Shown here: piece by piece, positions 39,996 through 63,127 of the stretch
How the letters are laid out: the number at the start of each line of letters is the position of its first letter
How positions within the stretch are numbered: position 1 is the first letter of the stretch
From: a virus
IMG/VR virus record: IMGVR_UViG_3300025732_000017
Reading direction: 5' to 3' (one strand)
Length of the DNA: 64,000 nt
Translations under genes and position numbers: made by a program
Notes under the pieces: generated by a model
What the model was told of the DNA's origin: nothing
The model's database searches: none
Seen by the model: only the letters and a program-made list of their open reading frames with translations

Positions 39996-40502
39996 ATGAA
40001 ACACGAACATCATATTATACCTAAACATATGGGTGGAAATGACGACCCTTCTAATTTAGTTTATCTAACTATTGAAGAACATGCTGAAGCACATAAAATA
40101 TTATGGGAAAAACATGGGAAATTAGAAGATAAAGTTGCTTACATGGGATTATTAAAAATGATTGATCGTGAGCAAATTATACATTGTTTAGTTTCCGCCC
40201 CTAAAAGCGAAGAACACAAAAGAAAAATATCTGAGGCACTTAAAGGTAAATCTAAACCTTGGTTAATTGGTTCTAAGAATGCTGCTGGCAAACGAGGACC
40301 CAATACTAAAGAACATAATCAACGTATTGCAGAAGCAAAAAAAGGTAAAAAACGTGCGCCTTTTAGTGATGAATGGAAACAAGCACTAAAAAACGCAAAA
40401 CAAAAACAACCAATACTTCAATGCCCACACTGTCAGTTACAAGGTCGTGGCGCTAATATGACCAGATATCATTTTGATAATTGCAAAGGAATCAAATCAT
40501 GA
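39996..40502 (+). mobile_element. Free-standing HNH homing endonuclease with NUMOD3-like repeats
   Basis: HHIIPKHMGGNDDPSNLVYLTIEEHAEAH; SEEHKRKISEALKGK; C-terminal CPHC..YHFDNC. AT-rich. Confidence 0.88.
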
Positions 40503-42958: not shown

Positions 42959-43061
42959 GACATCCGACATGGCTGTCGCACTATGGGGTGGAATATTCAT
43001 AGGATTCATATTTGGAATAATTGTTGGCGTTGCCTTTCAATTATTCAAATGTTCATTTTGA
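42948..43061 (+). CDS. Small single-TM peptide (not in the ORF track)
   Basis: MTYKTSDMAVALWGGIFIGFIFGIIVGVAFQLFKCSF, 37 aa, overlapping the upstream stop. Confidence 0.35.
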   Translation: MTYKTSDMAVALWGGIFIGFIFGIIVGVAFQLFKCSF

Positions 43062-45104
43062 AGTAGCCCTATAGACACCATCCCAATCTGCTGGTGGTGG
43101 ATTTCTTAGATACTCTTCACATCTTTCCTTCATCATTTCATAGTATGCTTTCATCTGACCATTGAATGCTCTGTCTAATTTCTCGCACATGCTTATTGCA
43201 CTTCCGAATTTTTGTGAGCGATAGTCATCAAGCATGATATTATGCATTTCTCTAAATGGTGCATAATTCAAGAATTCCATTTCTCTATTTGTTCCTATCA
43301 CGGTATAGATATTTACACCTTGCTTCTTACCCTTGACTGCAATTGTATCAAGTTCAATGATGAAGTATTCATCGGCAACATATTCTGCTGTCTTTGATCC
43401 GATTACGAGTTTTACTCCGTACGGTTTGGATTGTCCCTCAAGACGACTAGCAAGGTTGACAGCATCACCGAGGCAAGTATAATCGAAACGTTGATCGCTG
43501 CCCATGTTTCCAACAACAACCATACCAGTATTGATACCAAGACCCATGCCGAAAGGAGGAACACCTTCAGCTCCGATTTTTCTGTTGAACTCATCTAGAT
43601 CTCCTAACATGCTTAGAGCGGTTTTTACTGCATTCTTGGCGTGCTGCTTGTCGTCAAGTGGTGCATTCCAGAACGCCATCTGTGCATCACCAATATACTT
43701 GTCCAATGTGCCTTCATTCTCAAGGATCTTTGCTGTCATCGCAGTCATGTAGCGATTCATGATTTGTGTCAGACCCTGAACGTTTTCTCCATAGTGTTCA
43801 CTAATAGAAGTAAATCCACGAACATCGGTAAACATGATTGATAGTTCTCTGGTATCGCCACCGAGTTTCAATAGTTCTGGATTCTTCTGCAGTTTCTCAA
43901 CAAGTGCCTTTGAAAGATAAGATTGAAACTGTTTCTTGATTTGTTGCTTTAGTCTGAACTCTCTTGCAAAGTTGTTGAAGACTAGCCATGAGAATACTAA
44001 AGTAATTGCAAATAAAGGAAATGAATAATCAAACATAATATTCATTTCGTACATATAGAAGCAGGAACCGACGATTCCTACTGCCGAAACCACATAAAAA
44101 GGTATGGTTTGCCAAATCTTTAGTCTTGGAACAAGAAGAATGAATAGTAATCCAATGAGAGTCAATGTGAATAATTCAATACCATCAGCATAATCCAATC
44201 GCGTCAAACTATCGCCATTTACCAACGTAGAAATCATGGCTGCCTGCACTTCAGCTACGTTCTTTAGACCATAAGGCGTTGGAACGTTTGTGGCTAGTCC
44301 CTCGGCAGATAGAGTCAATATTACGACACGGTTCTCTATGTCGTTTAGATGATACATATGACGATAATCGAATTCCTTGTTGTACTTTATCCAGACGCGA
44401 CCATTTGAGTCCGTTTGGATAGTTTCAAATTGTGGAATGCGAACTGACTCAATGCCATTCAATCCAACTTTCATTTGGTAACTAGGATCACCAGTCAATG
44501 CACGAATGACTTCCAGAGACAACGTTGGATAAAGTTCCTTGTCTATTTGCACGACCATTGGCATACGACGTACGACGCCATCTATCTCTCCAGATGCAGC
44601 AAGAACACCGACACCAGCTGCCTTATCTTCAAACACTTTCAATGGGCGAACGATACCTAAAAATCTTTGTATCCACCCTTCGGGGTTTTGACCAATTATT
44701 GCGATTCCTCTTGGTGAACCTTCTGCTTTGCTGGCCTTGTTTGATGGTGCCTGTGATATGACAACACCATCGAGCGCATTTGCAAGATCTTGATCTTTTC
44801 CAAAACGATCTGGCTCCGAAAATATTATTGGCATGACTATCATCGCAGGATTCATCGTCTTTATCATTTCAAGTAGTTTTGCAACTTTATCACGAGGCCA
44901 TGGCCACTGACCTTGATTTTCAATATCGTCGTCAGTTATTTCAATAATTGAGATTTGTTCGCTGGATGTTCTTTCTCTTGATACTTGATAGTAGTCAAAT
45001 GTTTTTAGTCGTGCTGTCTCAATCAACCAACCATCTTGGAATCTCAACGCAATCAAACCTATCAAAACAACAACAACAATTTTCCAAGATGTAAAGAAGT
45101 TCAT
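43053..45104 (-). CDS. CHASE2-domain class III adenylate cyclase
   Basis: CHASE2 GQWPWPR and DGVVRRMP; 3 TM helices; cyclase FTDVRGFT, DKYIGDA, GNMGS..RFDYT.LGDAVNLASRLEG. Confidence 0.93.
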   Translation of the reverse strand: MNFFTSWKIVVVVLIGLIALRFQDGWLIETARLKTFDYYQVSRERTSSEQISIIEITDDDIENQGQWPWPRDKVAKLLEMIKTMNPAMIVMPIIFSEPDRFGKDQDLANALDGVVISQAPSNKASKAEGSPRGIAIIGQNPEGWIQRFLGIVRPLKVFEDKAAGVGVLAASGEIDGVVRRMPMVVQIDKELYPTLSLEVIRALTGDPSYQMKVGLNGIESVRIPQFETIQTDSNGRVWIKYNKEFDYRHMYHLNDIENRVVILTLSAEGLATNVPTPYGLKNVAEVQAAMISTLVNGDSLTRLDYADGIELFTLTLIGLLFILLVPRLKIWQTIPFYVVSAVGIVGSCFYMYEMNIMFDYSFPLFAITLVFSWLVFNNFAREFRLKQQIKKQFQSYLSKALVEKLQKNPELLKLGGDTRELSIMFTDVRGFTSISEHYGENVQGLTQIMNRYMTAMTAKILENEGTLDKYIGDAQMAFWNAPLDDKQHAKNAVKTALSMLGDLDEFNRKIGAEGVPPFGMGLGINTGMVVVGNMGSDQRFDYTCLGDAVNLASRLEGQSKPYGVKLVIGSKTAEYVADEYFIIELDTIAVKGKKQGVNIYTVIGTNREMEFLNYAPFREMHNIMLDDYRSQKFGSAISMCEKLDRAFNGQMKAYYEMMKERCEEYLRNPPPADWDGVYRATSK

Positions 45105-46132
45105 TTTTGTATTATCCTTATCTTATTGACATACGGAGACTCGGCATCGTTTATGCTAAACGTCACCGTTCTATCGCCTTGAGTTATTGACATGTCGTAG
45201 TTTTTGTCTTTTTCTATGTCCATTTGGACAGCACTTTCAACATTACGAAGTAGCCTGACTTTTGTGGCAGTGAATATAGTATATATTTGAGTAGATTGAT
45301 TGAGTCCTGCAATCTTTCCGACCGAAGACGCATCATATTCGCTCAACACATTTTGCAATAAATCCATATCAAGAAGATTGACATCAAGATCGTTGAACTT
45401 GAGATTGTCTTTGTCTAGATCTGTCGTATCAAGTTCTCTGAATTCCAGAAGATCTATTCTCAATGGATCATTTTTGTCGTGAGTGTCTTCGTCCTTTGAC
45501 TTCTCTGGCTTTGACACAATCAAAAGATTATTGATTTGACTCTCAAGTAGATTCAATATCGTTGGCTGTGCTGGTTTTCCCTCACTTGACGCGACATATG
45601 TGGATTGAAATGCCTTGTTCAATATCACTTGTCCAGCATCGGATTCAACTCGTATCTCACCGACTGTGCCATCGCGATTGGGTAATAGAATTATAAGACT
45701 TTGACCTATTTCGTCAACCGTCATGCTAAATGATGTGCCGCGAACACCAACTGTTGCAACTGGTGTTTGGATGTTTATGTTTTCATTATTGTTCTTTGCG
45801 ATTGCACCAGATGCATACCTGACCGTGCCAAGTGCAATCTTCATGGACATCTTGCCAGCACCACGATTGGGATCATAGACATATTCGTCTATGACAAGTT
45901 TGCTATTCTCGGTGATGGCTACTTGTGTTTCATCCTTGAATTTTATATTTGCTCTTGCGCGAGCTGTGCGAATCGTGTCCAATGATTCAACTTTACCACC
46001 TAAAGAAGCATCAACTGACGAGCCAGCTTTTTTGTCTATTTGTGCTGGACCCGTCAGTTGAATAAATTCACCAATAGAATTGGCTTTAGCCTCAGTCAGA
46101 CTGAGTAATAGTAGCAGTAAGATTATTACCAT
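45101..46132 (-). CDS. FecR-domain periplasmic protein
   Basis: Signal peptide; D.IRT......I.FKDET.V.I.ENSKL.ID.Y; I.TP.AT.GVRGT.F. Confidence 0.85.
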   Translation of the reverse strand: MVIILLLLLLSLTEAKANSIGEFIQLTGPAQIDKKAGSSVDASLGGKVESLDTIRTARARANIKFKDETQVAITENSKLVIDEYVYDPNRGAGKMSMKIALGTVRYASGAIAKNNNENINIQTPVATVGVRGTSFSMTVDEIGQSLIILLPNRDGTVGEIRVESDAGQVILNKAFQSTYVASSEGKPAQPTILNLLESQINNLLIVSKPEKSKDEDTHDKNDPLRIDLLEFRELDTTDLDKDNLKFNDLDVNLLDMDLLQNVLSEYDASSVGKIAGLNQSTQIYTIFTATKVRLLRNVESAVQMDIEKDKNYDMSITQGDRTVTFSINDAESPYVNKIRIIQK

Positions 46133-46760
46133 TTGTCGTCACATTCATGACCTTTTGTATGCTACCAGATTGAGAATATGTAAAGGTTCCGCTATTACCT
46201 GTGTGCGTGATCGTTGCTGTATGAGGTAATGTAGGAGCACCCGATTGACTAAAGTTTGTTACATTCAGATCGCCCGTAATATTCATTGTTAGCGATCCCG
46301 CCGTTGAATTCATTAGTATTGTAGTTTGATTATTGTCGCCAGTAACAGTTGCATCAAGTATCACGCTACTCTTCTTGATCGTGATATCTGTTGTATTGTT
46401 ATCTCCGATGTTGTAGAATTTCGCATCTACTGATGCACACGCATCAGTATTTCCAGCATTACACTTGAACTCCATCGTGTTCGTGCTGCCCTCTTGTTTT
46501 AGATCAACAAGATTTCCGTTACCATTCAATTCAAAATTCAATGTGTTTATCGCGCCGTTTTGCATTATGGTTATATCGTTATTGTCGCCTGTAATCAAAG
46601 CAGGCGTCGTTGACGAATTGATTTGATTCAATGCACCATTTTGTTGGGTGATTGTCAATGTCAATGCGTCTCCTGTTTGATCAATATAGATTTTACTATC
46701 CGTCGCGTTTGCTACATTGAATAACAAAACCATGAACAATGCTGCCCATAGTTTTCTCAT
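46092..46760 (-). CDS. Curlin-like repeat protein (CsgA/CsgB-like)
   Basis: Signal peptide; repeated x-I-x-Q-x-G-x-x-N units (IYIDQTGD, ITGDNNDITIMQNG, LKQEGSTN, VTGDNN, ITGDLN). Confidence 0.7.
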   Translation of the reverse strand: MRKLWAALFMVLLFNVANATDSKIYIDQTGDALTLTITQQNGALNQINSSTTPALITGDNNDITIMQNGAINTLNFELNGNGNLVDLKQEGSTNTMEFKCNAGNTDACASVDAKFYNIGDNNTTDITIKKSSVILDATVTGDNNQTTILMNSTAGSLTMNITGDLNVTNFSQSGAPTLPHTATITHTGNSGTFTYSQSGSIQKVMNVTTNGNNLTATITQSD

Positions 46761-47533
46761 TTGTTTCCTTCCTTTCTTTTCCAAAATCCTTTTCTTTCGC
46801 CTTCCATGATTGTTTCTATTACACTCTGCTCTATCGCAGCCTTGACAGCGTAGTTTGTTGGTTCATTTACTGCAAGACCTGTTTCTATTTCAAGTGCCTT
46901 TGTTCCCATGTCAACGAACTTCAACACATCAACTGATGTCTTGATGCTCAATATTGTTTTTTGTACTGCAACGGATGTTAGAACTTCGCCCGTTTGAACC
47001 GACACAAGACGAAGAAATACCGTGACAATATCCTGTCTATATTGTGTTGATACACCAATACCAAGGTATCTTGCACCAACACCACCCGATGATATGTTTG
47101 TATCATAACTTATGACGCCACCCTCGGCAATCAATCCAGCAAATAGTAGTGGGCGTAATTCTTTTGCTCTTTCTCCTTCAAATGCTTCGCGAGCAGTACG
47201 AATCAATTGTCTTTCCTTGATTAGATTATCAAGACCTACACGTTCAACAACACGAAACCATTTACCTTTTCCGACATCTTGCATGGCTTTGATCAACCAT
47301 GCTTCTGCGCCTTGTGTTATTGCTGTGCTTAGATGTGCAACATTTTCACTTGGTTTTCTTTGTCCGGTCTTGTCAAGATACGAGTAGACGGCCACGATCA
47401 ATGGCTGTCCATCAATTTCTTCTATCATTTCAAACATGCTTTGAGCCTTTGATGGCATCAATTCTGGCTCAGTCACTTCCATGGGTGCAACGCATCCAGC
47501 AAGCAACAAGAGCATTAGTAATGCTTTGTACAT
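46757..47533 (-). CDS. csgG: Curli secretion pore lipoprotein CsgG
   Basis: Lipobox LLAGC; VAVY...DKTGQRKP; F.VVERVGL.NL.KERQ.IR; GG...YD.N..SGG.GARYLGIG; VTV.LRLVSV.TGE. Confidence 0.92.
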   Translation of the reverse strand: MYKALLMLLLLAGCVAPMEVTEPELMPSKAQSMFEMIEEIDGQPLIVAVYSYLDKTGQRKPSENVAHLSTAITQGAEAWLIKAMQDVGKGKWFRVVERVGLDNLIKERQLIRTAREAFEGERAKELRPLLFAGLIAEGGVISYDTNISSGGVGARYLGIGVSTQYRQDIVTVFLRLVSVQTGEVLTSVAVQKTILSIKTSVDVLKFVDMGTKALEIETGLAVNEPTNYAVKAAIEQSVIETIMEGERKGFWKRKEGNK

Positions 47534-47976
47534 TAGAACTTGAACTCGCCTATTGGAACTTCAACGGTTGTTGTATTTCCATTTGATTGGACTATTGATA
47601 ATGTAACAGCATCTGTAGTCTTCACGAAGGATATTGTGTTTCCTTCAATGACGACGGTGCCAGAATTGCTTGCATTCTCACCAAACATTGTATCTACAAG
47701 TTGCTTGCTCAATTGAGCATATATTCTACCTTCAACATTCAATAGAAACTTGGATAGATTTGAATTGTCTATCTTTCTTTGTTCAGCAGCTTTTCTTGCT
47801 TCTTCTTCGGCTTTTAGTTTCTCTCTACGCTGGTATTCCATTGTTTCAATGGTTAGAACGTGTGAAGAATATCCAATGCCGCTAAACGAAGGATTCTTGA
47901 AGCCAAATTGTAGATTATCGGCTAAAACATGATCAGATATCAGCAAAAACATGACTAAGAAAGGTAATTTTCTCAT
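47533..47976 (-). CDS. csgF: Curli assembly component CsgF
   Basis: Signal peptide followed by LQFGFKNPSFSGIG; directly upstream of csgG. Confidence 0.85.
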   Translation of the reverse strand: MRKLPFLVMFLLISDHVLADNLQFGFKNPSFSGIGYSSHVLTIETMEYQRREKLKAEEEARKAAEQRKIDNSNLSKFLLNVEGRIYAQLSKQLVDTMFGENASNSGTVVIEGNTISFVKTTDAVTLSIVQSNGNTTTVEVPIGEFKF

Positions 47977-48002
47977 GATATTGAGTCCTTTCTTACAAGT
48001 AT

Positions 48003-48016
48003 TATTTAGATAAATA
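48003..48016. promoter_or_regulatory. Back-to-back divergent T4-type late promoters
   Basis: TATTTA-GA-TAAATA gives TCTAAATA on the minus strand (toward csgF) and GATAAATA on the plus strand (toward 48044). Confidence 0.6.
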
Positions 48017-48043
48017 TTACATACCACAACGTATTGGTGCATA

Positions 48044-50740
48044 ATGAAAGACTATAGATCGTTTATTATTGAGGCTAAAAAGAAAGCATTGAAGACTGTC
48101 GTGATGGCTTTTGGGCGCATGAATCCGCCAACTGTAGGTCATCAAAAACTTGTAAATAAAGTTAGAGAATTGGCAGATCGTCACAATGCTCATCATGAAG
48201 TCATAGTCTCTCATTCACAAGATGCACAAAAGAATCCATTATCGCAAGAACAAAAACTAAAACACGCAAAAAGATATTTTCCTGGCACAAATATAGTTGG
48301 CTCAAGTAAAGAGCATCCTAATTTTCTTGCACATGCACAACGTCTACATCAAGCAGGAAATGAGCATCTGGTCATGGTTGCTGGTCAAGATCGCGTCAAG
48401 GAATTTCATGACACATTGAAAAGATATAATGGTACACATCCTGGTGCACTATTCAATTTCAAGAAAATATCGGTAGTTTCTGCTGGTGCAAGAGATCCAG
48501 ATGCTGAGGGTGTTGAGGGAATGTCAGCATCAAAGATGCGCGAACATGCAAAAAACAATAACTTTGATGAGTTTCGCAAAGGAGTTCCCGGACATGTATC
48601 AGATGAACATGCAAAAGAATTGTTTCATGATACACGCAAGGGTATGGGATTGCATGAACAAGTTGATGAAGCATGTTGGGATGGATATAAAGCTGCTGGC
48701 ATGAAAAAGAAAGGGAATCGCATGGTTCCAAATTGTGTTCCTGAAGAATCTATCTTGAATAAACCGACAATGTCACCAGAAGAAATAGCAAAGAAACATA
48801 AAGTTGATGTCAAAGAAATCAATCGTCAACTTGAAATGGGAATCAAAGTAGAAAAAGAACACACCAAAGATGAAAAGACAGCTAGAGAAATCGCTCTTGA
48901 TCATCTTGGTGAAAAGCCAAATTACTATAGCAAGTTGAAGCAATACGTTGAATCAGTAGTAAAAGTAGGCACATTGATTGAAAATGATTTGGGTGAAGTT
49001 GGCAAAGTGCTTTCACTTCGCGAGAATTCAGTAGTATATAATGTTCTTGCTACAGGTATGATGAAGTCGTCAGGATATGGCGACTTTTCTCTTGTTGAGG
49101 CCATTGGTCATTTGGCTACAGGCGCACCAGATTATTTCTTTGGTGGTGTTGCAGACGCTCCAAAAGACAAGCAAGAAGAAATTGATCGCTCTCCTCAAGA
49201 CAAGGATGTTGGACATAAAAAACACACAACTCCAGCAAAATATTATGCAGGTCTTGAAAAGGGCACCAAGGAAAAGCGTTACGACCATTTTAGAAAGAAC
49301 ACAAAGAAAAGTTGGAAAGATCCTTCTGCATATGAACTAGCACCTGGCGATGCCAATGCAAAGACAAAACCATCCAAGCATACAGAAAAATACAAGAGAA
49401 TGTATGGTGAAGAACAAATAAATAATTTACAAACTGAAAATCTTTCAAGGGACGAAACCATGAATGAAGAAGCAGCAAAGGGTCTAGCCGCAAAGGCGAA
49501 GAAGTCGGGTATTCCATTGAGCACTTTGAGAAAAGTGTACAATAGAGGAATGGCTGCATGGAGAGGTGGTCATAGACCAGGAACTACTCCACAACAATGG
49601 GGTATGGCTCGCGTCAATTCATACATCACAAAAGGCAAGGGCACATATTATGGGGCTGACGCTGATCTGAGTGGTCAGGGCAAGAAGAAGATGAAGAAGG
49701 AAAATGTTTCTACTGATTTTGTAGGAACAGGAATGAATACTCCATTTTATGGAAGTCTTGACAAGGTTGGCGTTCATAATGAAAGCATTGACGAAGCATT
49801 TGAATCATTCATGAATGAAAATGTTCATGCTCTTGATACGAACATGGAATCACATTTATTTGGAACCGATGCTGCACGGATTGCAGCACAACAGATGACA
49901 CCGGGTGAGCCAGGCTATGTGGGAATGGGTAAAGAGGCTTCTAACTTCGTCCACTCAAGAGAAGGCGAACCCGAAGCCGATAAAGAAAAAAGTAAAGAAA
50001 AAAATAAAAAAAGCCAAGAAGAAGACTATCCGGGTGGCGACTACAACTCCAGACTTTCCGGAGCGCCAGCAGCCGTAGGTGGTCTTGGTGGATCATATAG
50101 CATCAATGTCCAAGAGAATGCACTACCAAATGTAGATTCTATTCGTGCATGGGCCTTGAAGGAATCCACACAAAGAAATTTCGTAGAAAGATATGGCAAT
50201 GATGCATCCAAGAAATTGATTGAGGCTGCACATCGCATGGTCAATTCAAAGACATCTTTCACATCGTTTAGACAAAAACTAGATGAAGCAGATTATGCAC
50301 CACAAGCATTTTCCATGGGATCTGGCTCAGGTCCAGTACTAAGTCCGCCAGAAACAGGATATGCAAAACAAGCATTTGGTGAAGGCAAGAAGAAGCCAAA
50401 GATGGAAAAAGTCAATGAAGATGAAGTGACATTTCATTGTGAAGAAGATGAATTGATTGAAGCACTTCAATGGGATGAAGAGACAACACCAATTGAAGAA
50501 GCTGAATATCAAGGCAAAAAAGTACAACTAGGCAAACCAATGGCTGGTGATGTAAAGAAGTCTAAGGTGTATGTCAAGGGACCTTCTGGTCGTGTCGTAA
50601 AGGTAAACTTTGGCGACAAGAACATGACAATCAAGAAGAATATTCCTGCTCGTAGAAAGTCATTCAGAGCAAGACATCATTGCGATACAAATCCGGGACC
50701 AAGATGGAAGGCACGCTATTGGTCGTGCAGGGCATGGTAA
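48044..50740 (+). CDS. Modular head-internal polyprotein with N-terminal cytidyltransferase-like domain
   Basis: MKDYRSFIIE; FGRMNPPTVGH (HxGH-like); MSASKMR; further small modules separated by (I/L/V)-x-E sites. Confidence 0.7.
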   Translation: MKDYRSFIIEAKKKALKTVVMAFGRMNPPTVGHQKLVNKVRELADRHNAHHEVIVSHSQDAQKNPLSQEQKLKHAKRYFPGTNIVGSSKEHPNFLAHAQRLHQAGNEHLVMVAGQDRVKEFHDTLKRYNGTHPGALFNFKKISVVSAGARDPDAEGVEGMSASKMREHAKNNNFDEFRKGVPGHVSDEHAKELFHDTRKGMGLHEQVDEACWDGYKAAGMKKKGNRMVPNCVPEESILNKPTMSPEEIAKKHKVDVKEINRQLEMGIKVEKEHTKDEKTAREIALDHLGEKPNYYSKLKQYVESVVKVGTLIENDLGEVGKVLSLRENSVVYNVLATGMMKSSGYGDFSLVEAIGHLATGAPDYFFGGVADAPKDKQEEIDRSPQDKDVGHKKHTTPAKYYAGLEKGTKEKRYDHFRKNTKKSWKDPSAYELAPGDANAKTKPSKHTEKYKRMYGEEQINNLQTENLSRDETMNEEAAKGLAAKAKKSGIPLSTLRKVYNRGMAAWRGGHRPGTTPQQWGMARVNSYITKGKGTYYGADADLSGQGKKKMKKENVSTDFVGTGMNTPFYGSLDKVGVHNESIDEAFESFMNENVHALDTNMESHLFGTDAARIAAQQMTPGEPGYVGMGKEASNFVHSREGEPEADKEKSKEKNKKSQEEDYPGGDYNSRLSGAPAAVGGLGGSYSINVQENALPNVDSIRAWALKESTQRNFVERYGNDASKKLIEAAHRMVNSKTSFTSFRQKLDEADYAPQAFSMGSGSGPVLSPPETGYAKQAFGEGKKKPKMEKVNEDEVTFHCEEDELIEALQWDEETTPIEEAEYQGKKVQLGKPMAGDVKKSKVYVKGPSGRVVKVNFGDKNMTIKKNIPARRKSFRARHHCDTNPGPRWKARYWSCRAW

Positions 50741-60457: not shown

Positions 60458-62377
60458 ATGAGTAATTCACTACCGACGCAATATCAGTCGTTCATCCACC
60501 TTTCGCGCTATTCAAGATGGTTACCAGAAAAGAATAGACGCGAAAATTGGTTTGAGACTGTTGGCAGATACTTTGATTTCTTTGAAGATCATCTAAAGCA
60601 ACATTGCAATTACAAGGTAAAGCCAGAAGAGCGTCGTGAACTGGAAGACGCAGTTCTTAGCCTAGAGATCATGCCATCAATGCGATGCCTCATGACTGCA
60701 GGTGAAGCATTGTCTCGCGAGAATGTTGCTGGATACAATTGCTCATACGTTGCTGTTGACTCGCCTCGTTCGTTTGACGAAATCCTATACATTCTCATGA
60801 ATGGAACTGGTGTTGGTTTCTCCGTCGAGCAAAAGTTCACCGATCAGCTTCCGATCATTGCTGAAGATTTCTATGAGTCCGACACCACTGTCGTCGTTGG
60901 TGATTCAAAACTTGGTTGGGCCAAGGCTCTGAAGGAAATCATTCATCTTCTCTATGGTGGTCAGATTGCTCGCTGGGATGTATCAAAGGTCAGACCCGCA
61001 GGCGCACCACTCAAGACATTTGGTGGTCGTGCATCTGGTCCAGAACCACTTGTCTCTTTGTTTGAATTCGTCACACGCATCTTCAAGAATGCTGCTGGTC
61101 GCAAGCTGACATCTCTTGAATGCCATGACATTGTCTGCAAGATCGCCGAGATCGTTGTCGTTGGTGGTGTTCGTCGTTCTGCACTCATTTCATTGTCAGA
61201 TCTTTCTGATGATGGTATGCGTACTGCAAAGAGTGGCATGTGGTGGGAAAACAATGCACAGAGAGCATTGGCCAACAATTCATTCGTTGCAAAGCGTAAG
61301 CCAGACATGTCAGTATTCATGAAGGAATGGTTTGCGCTGTATGAGTCCAAGTCGGGTGAGCGCGGAATCTTCTCGCGCACAGCATCACAGAATCAGGCCA
61401 AGAAGTATGGTCGTCGCAATCCAGATTTTGACTTTGGTACGAATCCATGCTCCGAGATCATTTTGCGTAATCGCGAGTTCTGCAATCTGACCGAAGTCGT
61501 CGTTCGTGCCTTAGACACATCAGTTGATCTTCATCGCAAGATTCGGCTTGCAACAATTCTTGGCACATGGCAGTCAACGCTGACCAACTTCAAGTATCTT
61601 CGCAATACATGGAAGAACAACTGCGATGAAGAAAGACTACTTGGCGTTTCATTGACTGGTATCATGGACAATGAAATCACGAATGGCAAGAAGGGTCGTG
61701 AAGAACTTCGTTCGGTTCTGAATGCTATTCGCAATCGTGCTGTCGAGACGAATGTTGAATGGGCCAAGAAACTTGGCATTCCTCGTTCGGCTGCGATTAC
61801 ATGCGTGAAGCCATCTGGCACAGTATCGCAGTTGGTTGATTCGGCATCTGGTATTCATGCGAGACATGCGCCATATTATATTCGCACGGTTCGTGCTGAC
61901 AAGAAAGATCCATTGGCCAAGATGATGGTTGATGCTGGCTTTCCTGTTGAAGACGATGTGATGAAGCCAGAACACACATATGTCTTTGCATTTCCAATGA
62001 AGACACCAGAGAATGCAGTATTTCGCAAGGACATGACTGCGATTGAGCAGCTTGAACTTTGGCTTGAGTATCAGAGACATTTCTGCGAGCATAAGCCATC
62101 TGTCACCATCTCGGTCAAGGAAGATGAGTGGATGGAAGTTGGTGCATGGGTCTATGAGCATTTTGACGAGATGTCTGGCGTATCGTTCTTGCCATTCTCT
62201 GATGCGTCTTATAAGCAAATGCCATATCAGGATTGCACGAAAGAGCAGTATGAGGCAATGGTAGAAAGAATGCCTAAGAATGTTGATTGGTCAAAGCTGT
62301 CAGATTATGAAAAACGTGATACAACAACTGGTACACAGGAGTTGAGCTGCACTGCGGGTTCCTGTGAAGTAGTATAA
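60458..62377 (+). CDS. nrdJ: Class II (adenosylcobalamin) ribonucleotide reductase
   Basis: GYNC, GGVRRSA, TNPCSEI, TCVKPSGT, EHKPS, C-terminal CTAGSC. No nrdB nearby. Confidence 0.88.
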   Translation: MSNSLPTQYQSFIHLSRYSRWLPEKNRRENWFETVGRYFDFFEDHLKQHCNYKVKPEERRELEDAVLSLEIMPSMRCLMTAGEALSRENVAGYNCSYVAVDSPRSFDEILYILMNGTGVGFSVEQKFTDQLPIIAEDFYESDTTVVVGDSKLGWAKALKEIIHLLYGGQIARWDVSKVRPAGAPLKTFGGRASGPEPLVSLFEFVTRIFKNAAGRKLTSLECHDIVCKIAEIVVVGGVRRSALISLSDLSDDGMRTAKSGMWWENNAQRALANNSFVAKRKPDMSVFMKEWFALYESKSGERGIFSRTASQNQAKKYGRRNPDFDFGTNPCSEIILRNREFCNLTEVVVRALDTSVDLHRKIRLATILGTWQSTLTNFKYLRNTWKNNCDEERLLGVSLTGIMDNEITNGKKGREELRSVLNAIRNRAVETNVEWAKKLGIPRSAAITCVKPSGTVSQLVDSASGIHARHAPYYIRTVRADKKDPLAKMMVDAGFPVEDDVMKPEHTYVFAFPMKTPENAVFRKDMTAIEQLELWLEYQRHFCEHKPSVTISVKEDEWMEVGAWVYEHFDEMSGVSFLPFSDASYKQMPYQDCTKEQYEAMVERMPKNVDWSKLSDYEKRDTTTGTQELSCTAGSCEVV

Positions 62378-63066
62378 TCATATCGTTCTATGGATAGGCC
62401 TCTATGTTTACCTTTTGCATAGGGGCCTTTTCCTATCTTGTGTCTAACTGCACTATAAGATAAACCAAGTTCATCACACATTTTTCGGGTATCATCAACA
62501 ATAATTTTCTTTCCATCAATGAAAGTCCATATTGTTTTTTTACGACCATCTTTTCCATAACCTTTTGTTTTGTATTTGCTAGAATTATTAGAATGTGTTG
62601 TTGATTTACCTCTATTGTGGGCTGGCTTACCTTTATTTTTTGCAGCAACTTTTGCTGCAATTTCGGGTCTTTTCATTGGATTATTTTGCAACATTTTTTC
62701 TTTTTGTTGAAGATTGGGCAATCCTTTATTCCAAGGCGATCTTCCTAGCGCCTTTTGTCTTATTTTTTCTTTTGTTTGCTCATTGTGTTTCTTTATATAA
62801 AATTGACCATTGTTATTTGATTGATTATAATAATTTGAATTTTCGGCTGCATTCGCTTCGCGCAGCATTTTTGTTTCAAGATTGTACATGTCTTCAAATA
62901 ATCCATGTGCAATAATTTCTCTCCTGAAATTAGATGGATTTATTTGATATTCTTCAAGCATGATTTTAGATGAGCATATGTATCCGTCATCTGAACTACC
63001 TTTATGTACACCAATGTACTTTTTACCGGTAGTTAGATTAGTCCATATATATACGAATGAATCCAT
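62305..63066 (-). mobile_element. Free-standing GIY-YIG (Seg-like) homing endonuclease
   Basis: FVYIWTN...KKYIG.HKG..DDGY..S; NUMOD3-like repeats; GAGGAG RBS. Overlaps the nrdJ 3' end convergently. Confidence 0.88.
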
Positions 63067-63127
63067 TGCTGATGGCTCCTCTTTAGCTGTTAGAGTGGTT
63101 GGGGCCTCGGAACCCGCGAACCACATC

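Follow-up and report, generated by a model that had tools for sequence, protein, structure and literature searches.

A divergent phage copy of the viral curli cassette combines a curli-type secretion unit with a candidate FecR–CHASE2 adenylate cyclase sensor

A viral curli region with the gene order CsgF-CsgG-CsgA/B-FecR-(CsgA/B)-adenylate cyclase has been described in pelagiphages and in the Methylophilales phage Melnitz (PMC9599517; PMC7029224; PMC9004378). Zaragoza-Solas et al. reported csgF and csgG together with three linked genes (PMC7029224), Buchholz et al. speculated on a pore that sets lysis timing (PMC9004378), and Wittmers et al. described in 2022 the full region, its ocean-wide spread, its transcripts and its likely alphaproteobacterial origin, and stated that bacterial curli operons include neither FecR nor the cyclase (PMC9599517). 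In these three papers FecR is labelled an iron-dependent regulator, and neither CHASE2 nor a FecR–CHASE2 partnership is mentioned. From bacteria, it has been reported that NsrA is required for the activation of the cyclase CyaK in Sinorhizobium meliloti (PMC7529298, PMC13001267), that SMc02177 adjoins cyaD1 (PMC5498481), that Burkholderia carries a LysM-FecR/CHASE2 kinase operon (PMC5192318), and that Campylobacterota carry a cluster of FecR-outer-membrane protein, TPR, phosphodiesterase and CHASE2 cyclase genes (PMC9239204). Here we analyse a five-gene cassette of this kind on a viral DNA stretch of 64,000 nucleotides, IMG/VR record IMGVR_UViG_3300025732_000017 (hereafter the window). A first-pass annotation of the letters alone had proposed that the five genes form a trans-envelope cyclic AMP (cAMP) signalling system of a lytic phage, with an external cue relayed through FecR to the cyclase. 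It had also cited csgF and csgG from some marine myophages as genes of unknown function, an outdated account, the whole cassette including FecR and cyclase having been published in 2022 (PMC9599517). The window cassette is an intact, strongly conserved and divergent five-gene copy of the published one; what is new is its strict co-conservation, the FecR–CHASE2 pair in bacteria, the varying envelope partners of that pair, and bacterial curli loci that lack it.

By Pfam assignment, five overlapping minus-strand genes at 43053-48042 encode CsgF, CsgG, a curlin-repeat protein, a FecR-domain protein and a CHASE2 adenylate cyclase, in this order (Table 1). The block is the sole multi-gene minus-strand operon of the window, nearly all of whose other genes lie on the plus strand, as had been noticed at first sight and as the open reading frame (ORF) map bears out; besides it there is a lone minus-strand ORF at 62305-63126. 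The parts and the compartments first predicted for them were likewise recovered with Pfam, signal peptides and hydropathy. Successive genes overlap by TAATG, ATGA, 41 nt and ATGA, which implies translational coupling of the five genes. The csgF start, at first placed at 48016 (or 48042), has to be moved: the most likely start, judged from the sequence, is the ATG at 47976, which opens the reading frame MRKLPF... with its signal peptide and has AAGGA 9 nt upstream. The curlin start is likewise corrected, most likely to the ATG at 46760, which gives a product with a typical signal peptide. Pelagibacter phage HTVC008M and Methylophilales phage Melnitz carry annotated copies of this cassette (records KC465899 and MZ577097).

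Relatives of the cyclase were found on at least 598 IMG/VR contigs. Phage loci were sampled by the cyclase or by CsgG as the best 80 matches to the window proteins, and these samples cover only the myophage relatives of the window. All 50 cyclase-sampled viral loci with enough upstream DNA carried CsgF-CsgG-curlin-FecR-(curlin2)-cyclase in constant order, 26 of them in the five-gene form found in the window and 24 with a second curlin-like gene. Reciprocally, among 45 CsgG-sampled loci with enough downstream DNA, the cyclase was on the same strand in 43, inverted in one and absent within 5 kb in one, and the full cassette in constant order was present in 43. The gene-neighbourhood check that the first-pass annotation had proposed for its operon was thereby run, and the five genes proved to be co-conserved (50/50 and 43/45). 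In 68 non-redundant modules, all cassette parts were intact ORFs, and the mean pairwise identity was 67% for the cyclase domain, 55% for CsgG, 52% for the FecR domain, 46% for CsgF, 43% for CHASE2, 34% for curlin and 25% for the FecR C-terminus. The second curlin-like gene, which is missing from the clade of the window, lies between fecR and the cyclase gene in about half of the related phages (L044, L085, L226, L248, L262 and others), encodes 86-797 aa and seems to grow or shrink by repeat number. Three contigs filed under Bacteroidetes/Chitinophagales metagenome-assembled genomes, about 50% identical to the window, carry a phage-type cassette (L084, L085) or the cyclase (L083), and all three are probably phage contigs binned into bacterial genomes. 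A bacterial donor of the whole five-gene cassette was sought and not found, the only 'bacterial' carriers being L084 and L085.

The distribution of the same genes in bacteria was then compared. Among bacteria, relatives of the cyclase were found in Micavibrio, Micropepsaceae, Desulfovibrionaceae, Acidobacteriota and Verrucomicrobiota, many of them with a FecR-domain neighbour, and none of the 43 had CsgG, CsgF or curlin nearby. A phylum-wide sample of 60 genomes was built, with a single CHASE2 gene per genome and 7 kb flanks, and was searched with hidden Markov models (HMMs) for FecR, CHASE2 and cyclic-nucleotide-monophosphate (cNMP) binding made ad hoc from fetched sequences, so that the counts are lower bounds. 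A FecR-domain ORF lay within 3 kb of the CHASE2 gene in 26 of the 60 genomes, mostly less than 200 bp away; none of the 60 loci had a FecR match solely in the outer ~8 kb of the searched flanks, and none had CsgG, CsgF or curlin within 7 kb. FecR neighbours accompanied 19 of 44 CHASE2 cyclases and 7 of 16 non-cyclase CHASE2 proteins, and six non-cyclase CHASE2 proteins were identified by Pfam as five histidine kinases and one GGDEF protein. By these counts, the FecR pairing goes with the CHASE2 sensor and not with the output domain, be it cyclase, histidine kinase or GGDEF. Conversely, at the seven strongest CsgG loci among 401 Alphaproteobacteria, CsgF, CsgG and curlins were present, and neither FecR nor CHASE2 was found within 9 kb. 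Since the FecR–CHASE2 pairs occur without curli and the curli loci without the pair, the phage cassette unites two modules that the sampled bacteria keep apart. The second of them would, by its domains, consist of a periplasmic FecR-domain protein and a cognate CHASE2 receptor fused to a class IIIb adenylate cyclase. This two-module composition favours, in outline, the sensor reading first put forward, and the relay from FecR to CHASE2 that it assumed gains comparative support from the 26 bacterial genomes, in which an outer-membrane or surface part is usually present as well.

The bacterial partners vary in their architecture. They include short secreted proteins and LysM-FecR proteins, and a recurrent arrangement is a FecR gene followed by a gene for a Slam-type (TPR + SlipAM) barrel and then by the cyclase gene. 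Five loci (L192, L195, L197, L203 and L095) carry such a three-gene unit, in which genes for the CHASE2 adenylate cyclase and the Slam-type outer-membrane protein accompany that for a FecR-domain protein of ~580 aa. Slam proteins are exporters of surface lipoproteins, and the FecR protein of this triad may therefore be Slam cargo. In several sampled genomes, fusions of FecR, TPR and a TonB-type barrel (~1200 aa) adjoin CHASE2 cyclases. These fusions are of NsrA-like length, and NsrA itself probably carries a FecR domain too. FecR is also joined to cadherin, Big, FG-GAP, TIG or PKD domains, in one case beside a type I secretion system. On the Micavibrio chromosome L093, the CHASE2 cyclase gene directly follows a type I secretion system (OEP, C39-ABC transporter, HlyD) and adjoins a gene for a 1052-aa FecR/FG-GAP/BapA-prefix protein, and a cNMP-binding gene lies ~6 kb off on the same chromosome. 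One bacterial locus has a CRP-type gene between the FecR gene and the cyclase gene. The overall pattern suggests that FecR–CHASE2 pairs usually work with a part that crosses or sits in the outer membrane, which in the phage would be CsgG/CsgF and curlin, and on this pattern we argue that the CHASE2 sensor has its periplasmic partner in the FecR-domain protein.

The curli part of the cassette was evaluated by motif, profile and model. The mature N-terminus of CsgF, LQFGFKNPSFSG, stands directly after the signal peptide and fits the CsgG-capping motif, and an FxFxNPxF-type motif or a near variant is kept in all phage CsgF homologues. The window CsgG scores 170 bits against the E. coli CsgG structures. 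Its constriction loop reads S..V.HL versus Y...NF in E. coli; aligned to E. coli Y51, N55 and F56, the window protein has S, H and L, with V nearby, and in the wider phage CsgG clade these positions hold an aromatic residue, S/H and L/F. By this alignment the window loop would be a conservative variant of the E. coli one. In the related loci L044, L258, L262, L274, L276 and L298, the csgG reading frames are 387-463 aa long, 120-200 codons beyond the usual 260, and may represent upstream in-frame starts or true extensions. For the curlin-repeat subunit, Curlin_rpt of Pfam matched the single sequence just below its cut-off (E 9e-4, 19.6 bits, cut-off 20.7), and a profile of 19 phage curlin homologues matched 8c50, a curlin of solved structure, with E 1.4e-13 and CsgA of E. 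coli (8enq) with 3e-4. Its AlphaFold2 (AF2) model is all-beta, with a predicted local distance difference test (pLDDT) of 88, and the closest fold in a wide VIA-align search was Pontibacter CsgA 8c50 (Z 18.3, 190 residues, root-mean-square deviation (rmsd) 8.6); a Foldseek search of the model against the PDB gave no significant match. CsgE, CsgC/H and CsgD were found neither among the five operon ORFs, which belong to other families, nor among the Pfam matches of the flanking ORFs, and alphaproteobacterial curli systems likewise lack CsgE, CsgC and CsgD (PMC9599517). The first module is thus best described, on its sequence features, as a minimal type VIII (curli-type) secretion unit with a CsgG channel, a CsgF cap and one secreted curlin-repeat beta-solenoid; its secretion parts seem complete, and it looks fully functional.

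The FecR-domain protein was examined mainly by structure comparison. Its AF2 model has a pLDDT of 74 overall and under 50 in the linker. Residues 49-201 match the C-terminal cell-surface signalling domain of PupR (6ovk) with Z 14.9 and an rmsd of 2.5 Å over 134 aligned residues. Residues 17-113 match the MpIBP/LapA retention module 5ix9 over 74/76 residues with Z 7.6, an rmsd of 2.1 Å and 23% identity, a middling Z that could reflect a common beta arrangement. Neither an anti-sigma domain nor a transmembrane (TM) helix or second hydrophobic segment was detected in the protein by Pfam, AF2 model and hydropathy, and neither an extracytoplasmic function (ECF) sigma factor gene nor a TonB-dependent transducer gene was found in the operon or its flanks. 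Therefore, the label 'iron regulator' for this protein is unfounded. The linker carries conserved Leu/Asp repeats, LDxDxL...LDKDxL...LDxNxL, and the small C-terminal beta domain ends in a conserved I-x-I-x-Q. No known family or fold was matched by the linker (206-272) or the beta domain (273-343), and a feature search of residues 200-343 gave no usable match either; a curlin repeat at the C-terminus was considered and rejected (profile-profile probability 7%).

The cyclase shows the layout of a CHASE2 receptor, with an N-terminal TM segment (hydrophobic residues 2-27), the CHASE2 domain, a TM cluster at about 308-380 and then the output domain, as indicated by hydropathy. The cyclase domain aligns to the Cya2, CyaB and CyaC structures. 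The metal-binding D427 and D473, the adenine-specifying K469 and T543, and the transition-state residues N550 and R554 do not vary among 12 phage homologues, which have 50-77% identity. The first-pass annotation had called the D, D, K, N and R residues intact and adenylate-type, correctly so, and had omitted T543. A Lys/Thr pair is the mark of class IIIb adenylate cyclases. By its residues the enzyme is predicted to be an adenylate-type class IIIb cyclase with all catalytic residues intact, and the comparison of homologues indicates that it is under strong purifying selection. Behind the cyclase domain follows a tail of 80 aa (residues 606-683; 43053-43289) with invariant Y654, Y655, R661, D675, G676 and terminal K683; it ends in PPPxDWDGVYRATSK, bacterial relatives align up to its last residue, and no Pfam family matches it.

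Table 1. Positions of the cassette genes, their domains and the adjoining intergenic region in the window
Feature	Positions	Strand	Evidence
csgF, secreted CsgF, 147 aa, signal peptide MRKLPFLVMFLLISDHVLA	47533..47976	-	Pfam CsgF E 7e-17
csgG, outer-membrane lipoprotein channel, 258 aa, lipobox LLAGC	46757..47533	-	Pfam CsgG E 4e-50
Curlin-repeat subunit, CsgA/B-like, 222 aa, signal peptide, about 10 QxGxxN-type strands	46092..46760	-	Pfam Curlin_rpt below cut-off, and profile
Secreted FecR-domain protein, 343 aa, signal peptide	45101..46132	-	Pfam FecR E 4e-12
FecR fold, residues 20-200	45533-46075	-	Pfam, AF2 model, structure matches
Disordered acidic Leu/Asp-rich linker, residues 206-272	45317-45517	-	AF2 pLDDT <50
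Small C-terminal beta domain, residues 273-343	45104-45316	-	AF2 model
Receptor adenylate cyclase, 683 aa	43053..45104	-	Pfam CHASE2 E 4e-41, Guanylate_cyc E 1e-19
Periplasmic CHASE2 domain, residues 14-319	44148-45065	-	Pfam E 4e-41
Class IIIb cyclase domain, residues 419-602	43299-43850	-	Pfam, PDB class III cyclases
Divergent intergenic region, 67 bp, csgF to plus-strand gene at 48044	47977..48043	.	sequence

We propose, giving it an even chance of being right, that the cassette is a surface-coupled cyclase, a phage composite of two bacterial modules in which the state of the curli unit, or an entering ligand, would act through FecR and CHASE2 on cAMP. In the infected cell, CsgG and CsgF would form an outer-membrane channel and export curlin, and the FecR-domain protein, lying in the periplasm, would serve the CHASE2 domain as a ligand or co-receptor. 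It would in this way couple the state of the outer-membrane unit, or an incoming ligand, to cAMP synthesis at the inner membrane, and the cAMP would act on host receptors. The mechanism first suggested for the locus is thus a plausible one, and its central link has comparative support.

Several observations weigh against a surface-coupled cyclase. The phage FecR protein has neither a beta-barrel nor a lipid anchor with which to contact the outer-membrane unit. Neither the window nor 2.06 Mb of related viral loci nor five phage genomes with the cassette yielded a cNMP-binding domain, and a CsgD-like or CRP-like regulator was likewise not found in these sequences; as the phage encodes no cAMP receptor, the target of cAMP must belong to the host. 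Podophage versions of the cassette often lack the cyclase (PMC9599517), so the curli unit can stand alone. In bacteria, 34 of the 60 CHASE2 genes had no FecR neighbour by the ad hoc HMM, which makes the pairing frequent and not obligatory. Scans for sigma-70 promoters and terminators gave nothing above shuffled sequence, and co-transcription of the five genes is for that reason deduced from their overlaps only. Among the parts outside the cyclase gene, the FecR domain is the one that CHASE2 distances track best (r 0.78, partial 0.51, versus 0.66 and partial 0.17 for CsgF), which is a weak sign for the pairing and is confounded by shared descent. Finally, the contact between FecR and CHASE2, the direction of the signal, its trigger and the effect of cAMP are inferred steps of this reading.

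The rival that survives best, doubtful in our judgement and still live, takes curli fibres as the main function, for aggregation or 'sibling capture', as a superinfection barrier or for cofactor import, with FecR and the cyclase as accessory regulators (PMC9599517, PMC7029224). The type VIII unit does seem secretion-complete, with its lipobox, its CsgF capping motif and a secreted curlin of CsgA-like fold; the second curlin gene in half of the related phages, at 86-797 aa, fits a surface product under diversifying pressure, and transcripts are present in ocean metatranscriptomes (PMC9599517). However, transcription control in the FecR style is impossible for a FecR protein that has no anti-sigma domain, ECF sigma factor or TonB transducer, and a CsgD-like or CRP-like regulator was not found in the phage. 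The seven alphaproteobacterial curli loci make no use of FecR and CHASE2, the bacterial FecR–CHASE2 pairs are unconnected to curli, and Melnitz cultures showed no clumping (PMC9004378). Fibre formation is partly compatible with a surface-coupled cyclase, the dispute being which part is input and which is output. The contrast drawn at first between a sensor and a biofilm auxiliary metabolic gene was accordingly a false choice: because the curli unit looks fully functional, sensor and curli functions can both hold.

It is improbable that the cassette serves simply for host takeover by cAMP, with FecR as a built-in activator, the cyclase switching host CRP-type regulons and the curli unit merely linked. 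This explanation can point to the cyclase domain, whose conservation exceeds that of every other cassette part (67% mean identity versus 43% for CHASE2), to the missing phage receptor, which leaves the host as the target, and to CyaD1, a rhizobial cyclase that becomes constitutive when CHASE2 is removed (PMC5498481), so that the sensor domain gates activity. It has to account, however, for the strict linkage and fixed order with csgF, csgG and curlin over hundreds of divergent contigs, and for the translational coupling, and a soluble cyclase would suffice if cAMP alone were needed. Very improbable is a CsgG/CsgF pore acting as a gated secretin or pinholin-like lysis timer (PMC9004378), which has published structural speculation and synteny for Melnitz only behind it (PMC9004378): a channel in the outer membrane has no means of depolarising the inner one, ordinary type VIII secretion is indicated by the CsgF capping motif and the conserved curlin substrate, and FecR and the cyclase are left unexplained.

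The surface-coupled cyclase can be carried further, to a joint reading that we put forward tentatively and hold to be unlikely. It takes the FecR protein as a tether across the outer membrane and FecR–CHASE2 as a widespread class of trans-envelope sensors with an interchangeable conduit. By analogy with LapA/MpIBP, the folded N-terminal domain would be a periplasmic plug that touches CHASE2; the disordered acidic linker of about 65 residues would be threaded through the narrow CsgG/CsgF channel, and the C-terminal beta domain would fold outside the cell, near the curlin. If curlin assembly, cell contact or a superinfecting phage caused the outer part to be pulled, masked or lost, a signal would pass to the cyclase. 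Slam barrels, TonB-type barrels and type I secretion would be alternative conduits, with type VIII secretion as the one used by phages, which would have recruited FecR–CHASE2 to read the cell surface during infection.

The surroundings of the cassette were inspected for the identity of the phage and for control elements. PHROG matches in the window include a DNA polymerase, a ribonucleotide reductase and a virion structural protein, and the polymerase is ~51% identical to cyanomyophage polymerases. From this gene content, the window is part of a T4-like phage of a lineage without a cultured relative; the word 'lytic' in the first-pass annotation agrees with the T4-like content and has no other basis. 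G+C is about 40%, and no tRNA genes were found in the window. Ahead of csgF, in the divergent intergenic region, a CTAAATA lies at 48003-48009 (minus strand), 27 nt before the ATG, and is a possible late-type promoter, as a lead only, the motif not being enriched in the window (9 found versus 7.5 expected). The exact T4 late promoter TATAAATA was not found in 47977-48043 or near the operon. Inside fecR, at 45690-45717 on the minus strand, a sigma-70-type site near consensus (TTGACG, 16-nt spacer, TATAAT; 11/12 positions) faces the cyclase gene, in a scan whose total did not exceed that of shuffled sequence. The divergent neighbour at 48044-50740 (+), whose start is 67 bp from csgF, encodes 898 aa with a cytidylyltransferase-like N-terminus, DUF5661 and DUF5824. 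Conserved phage genes flank a small ORF at 39996-40502 that contains NUMOD3, a motif characteristic of homing endonucleases.

Few accessory modules of marine and aquatic T4-like phages are as widespread as this cassette, and curli proteins of phages are reported to account for ~0.1% of the viral proteins assembled from ocean viromes (PMC9599517). If FecR–CHASE2 is a surface-coupled sensor, these phages would supply the cell they infect with a new second-messenger input, and theirs would be one of the rare instances in which a virus brings in an entire signalling pathway. The factors recognised by CHASE2 domains were stated as not known in 2016 (PMC5192318). The comparative result obtained here suggests FecR as a testable partner of CHASE2. 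To our knowledge, no CHASE2 ligand has been defined since 2016.

Compared with described systems, the cassette shares single features with several and its full composition with one. With the LapA/MpIBP adhesins, the FecR protein has in common a folded domain (retention module 5ix9) followed by a long unstructured stretch, as in LapA; unlike there, the conduit would be CsgG and not a TolC-like pore, and LapG/LapD-type partners are not present. With FecA-FecR-FecI and PupR, it shares the periplasmic FecR-fold domain (residues 49-201 versus 6ovk), whereas the anti-sigma domain, TM helix, ECF sigma factor and TonB-dependent transducer of those systems are missing. The pelagiphage and Melnitz cassettes have the same genes in the same order and belong to the same kind of phage, T4-like and Kyanoviridae-related. 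By tblastn, the window proteins are 43-48% (CsgF), 49-51% (CsgG), 29-31% (curlin), 40% (FecR) and 39-42% (cyclase) identical to theirs, and the window differs in being the five-gene form without the second curlin and in belonging to a divergent lineage. The bacterial FecR/CHASE2 pairs resemble the phage pair in placing the gene for a secreted FecR-domain protein next to that for a CHASE2 receptor, and a barrel of the outer membrane often accompanies them; over the 60 sampled loci and 43 cyclase relatives, only phages have so far been seen to join such a pair to type VIII secretion.

A precedent studied by experiment is NsrA–CyaK of S. meliloti (and CyaD1/D2), in which an outer-membrane receptor and CHASE2 adenylate cyclases signal through cAMP-Clr (PMC7529298, PMC13001267). 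Unlike the rhizobial system, the phage has a small, soluble and barrel-less FecR protein, with a separate CsgG/CsgF channel and curlin as its outer-membrane part, and, unlike the cAMP-Clr pathway, no Clr-like receptor in the phage sequences searched. CsgG, the cassette's sole outer-membrane protein, is a channel of another type than the barrels beside or fused to bacterial FecR domains. The phage gene for the FecR-domain protein adjoins that for the CHASE2 cyclase with a 4-nt ATGA overlap, and the two systems resemble each other in their CHASE2 class III cyclase with cAMP as the output, in the phage a predicted one, and in a neighbouring gene for a protein that is associated with the outer membrane, or would work with it, and that CyaK requires for its activation in S. 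meliloti (PMC7529298, PMC13001267).

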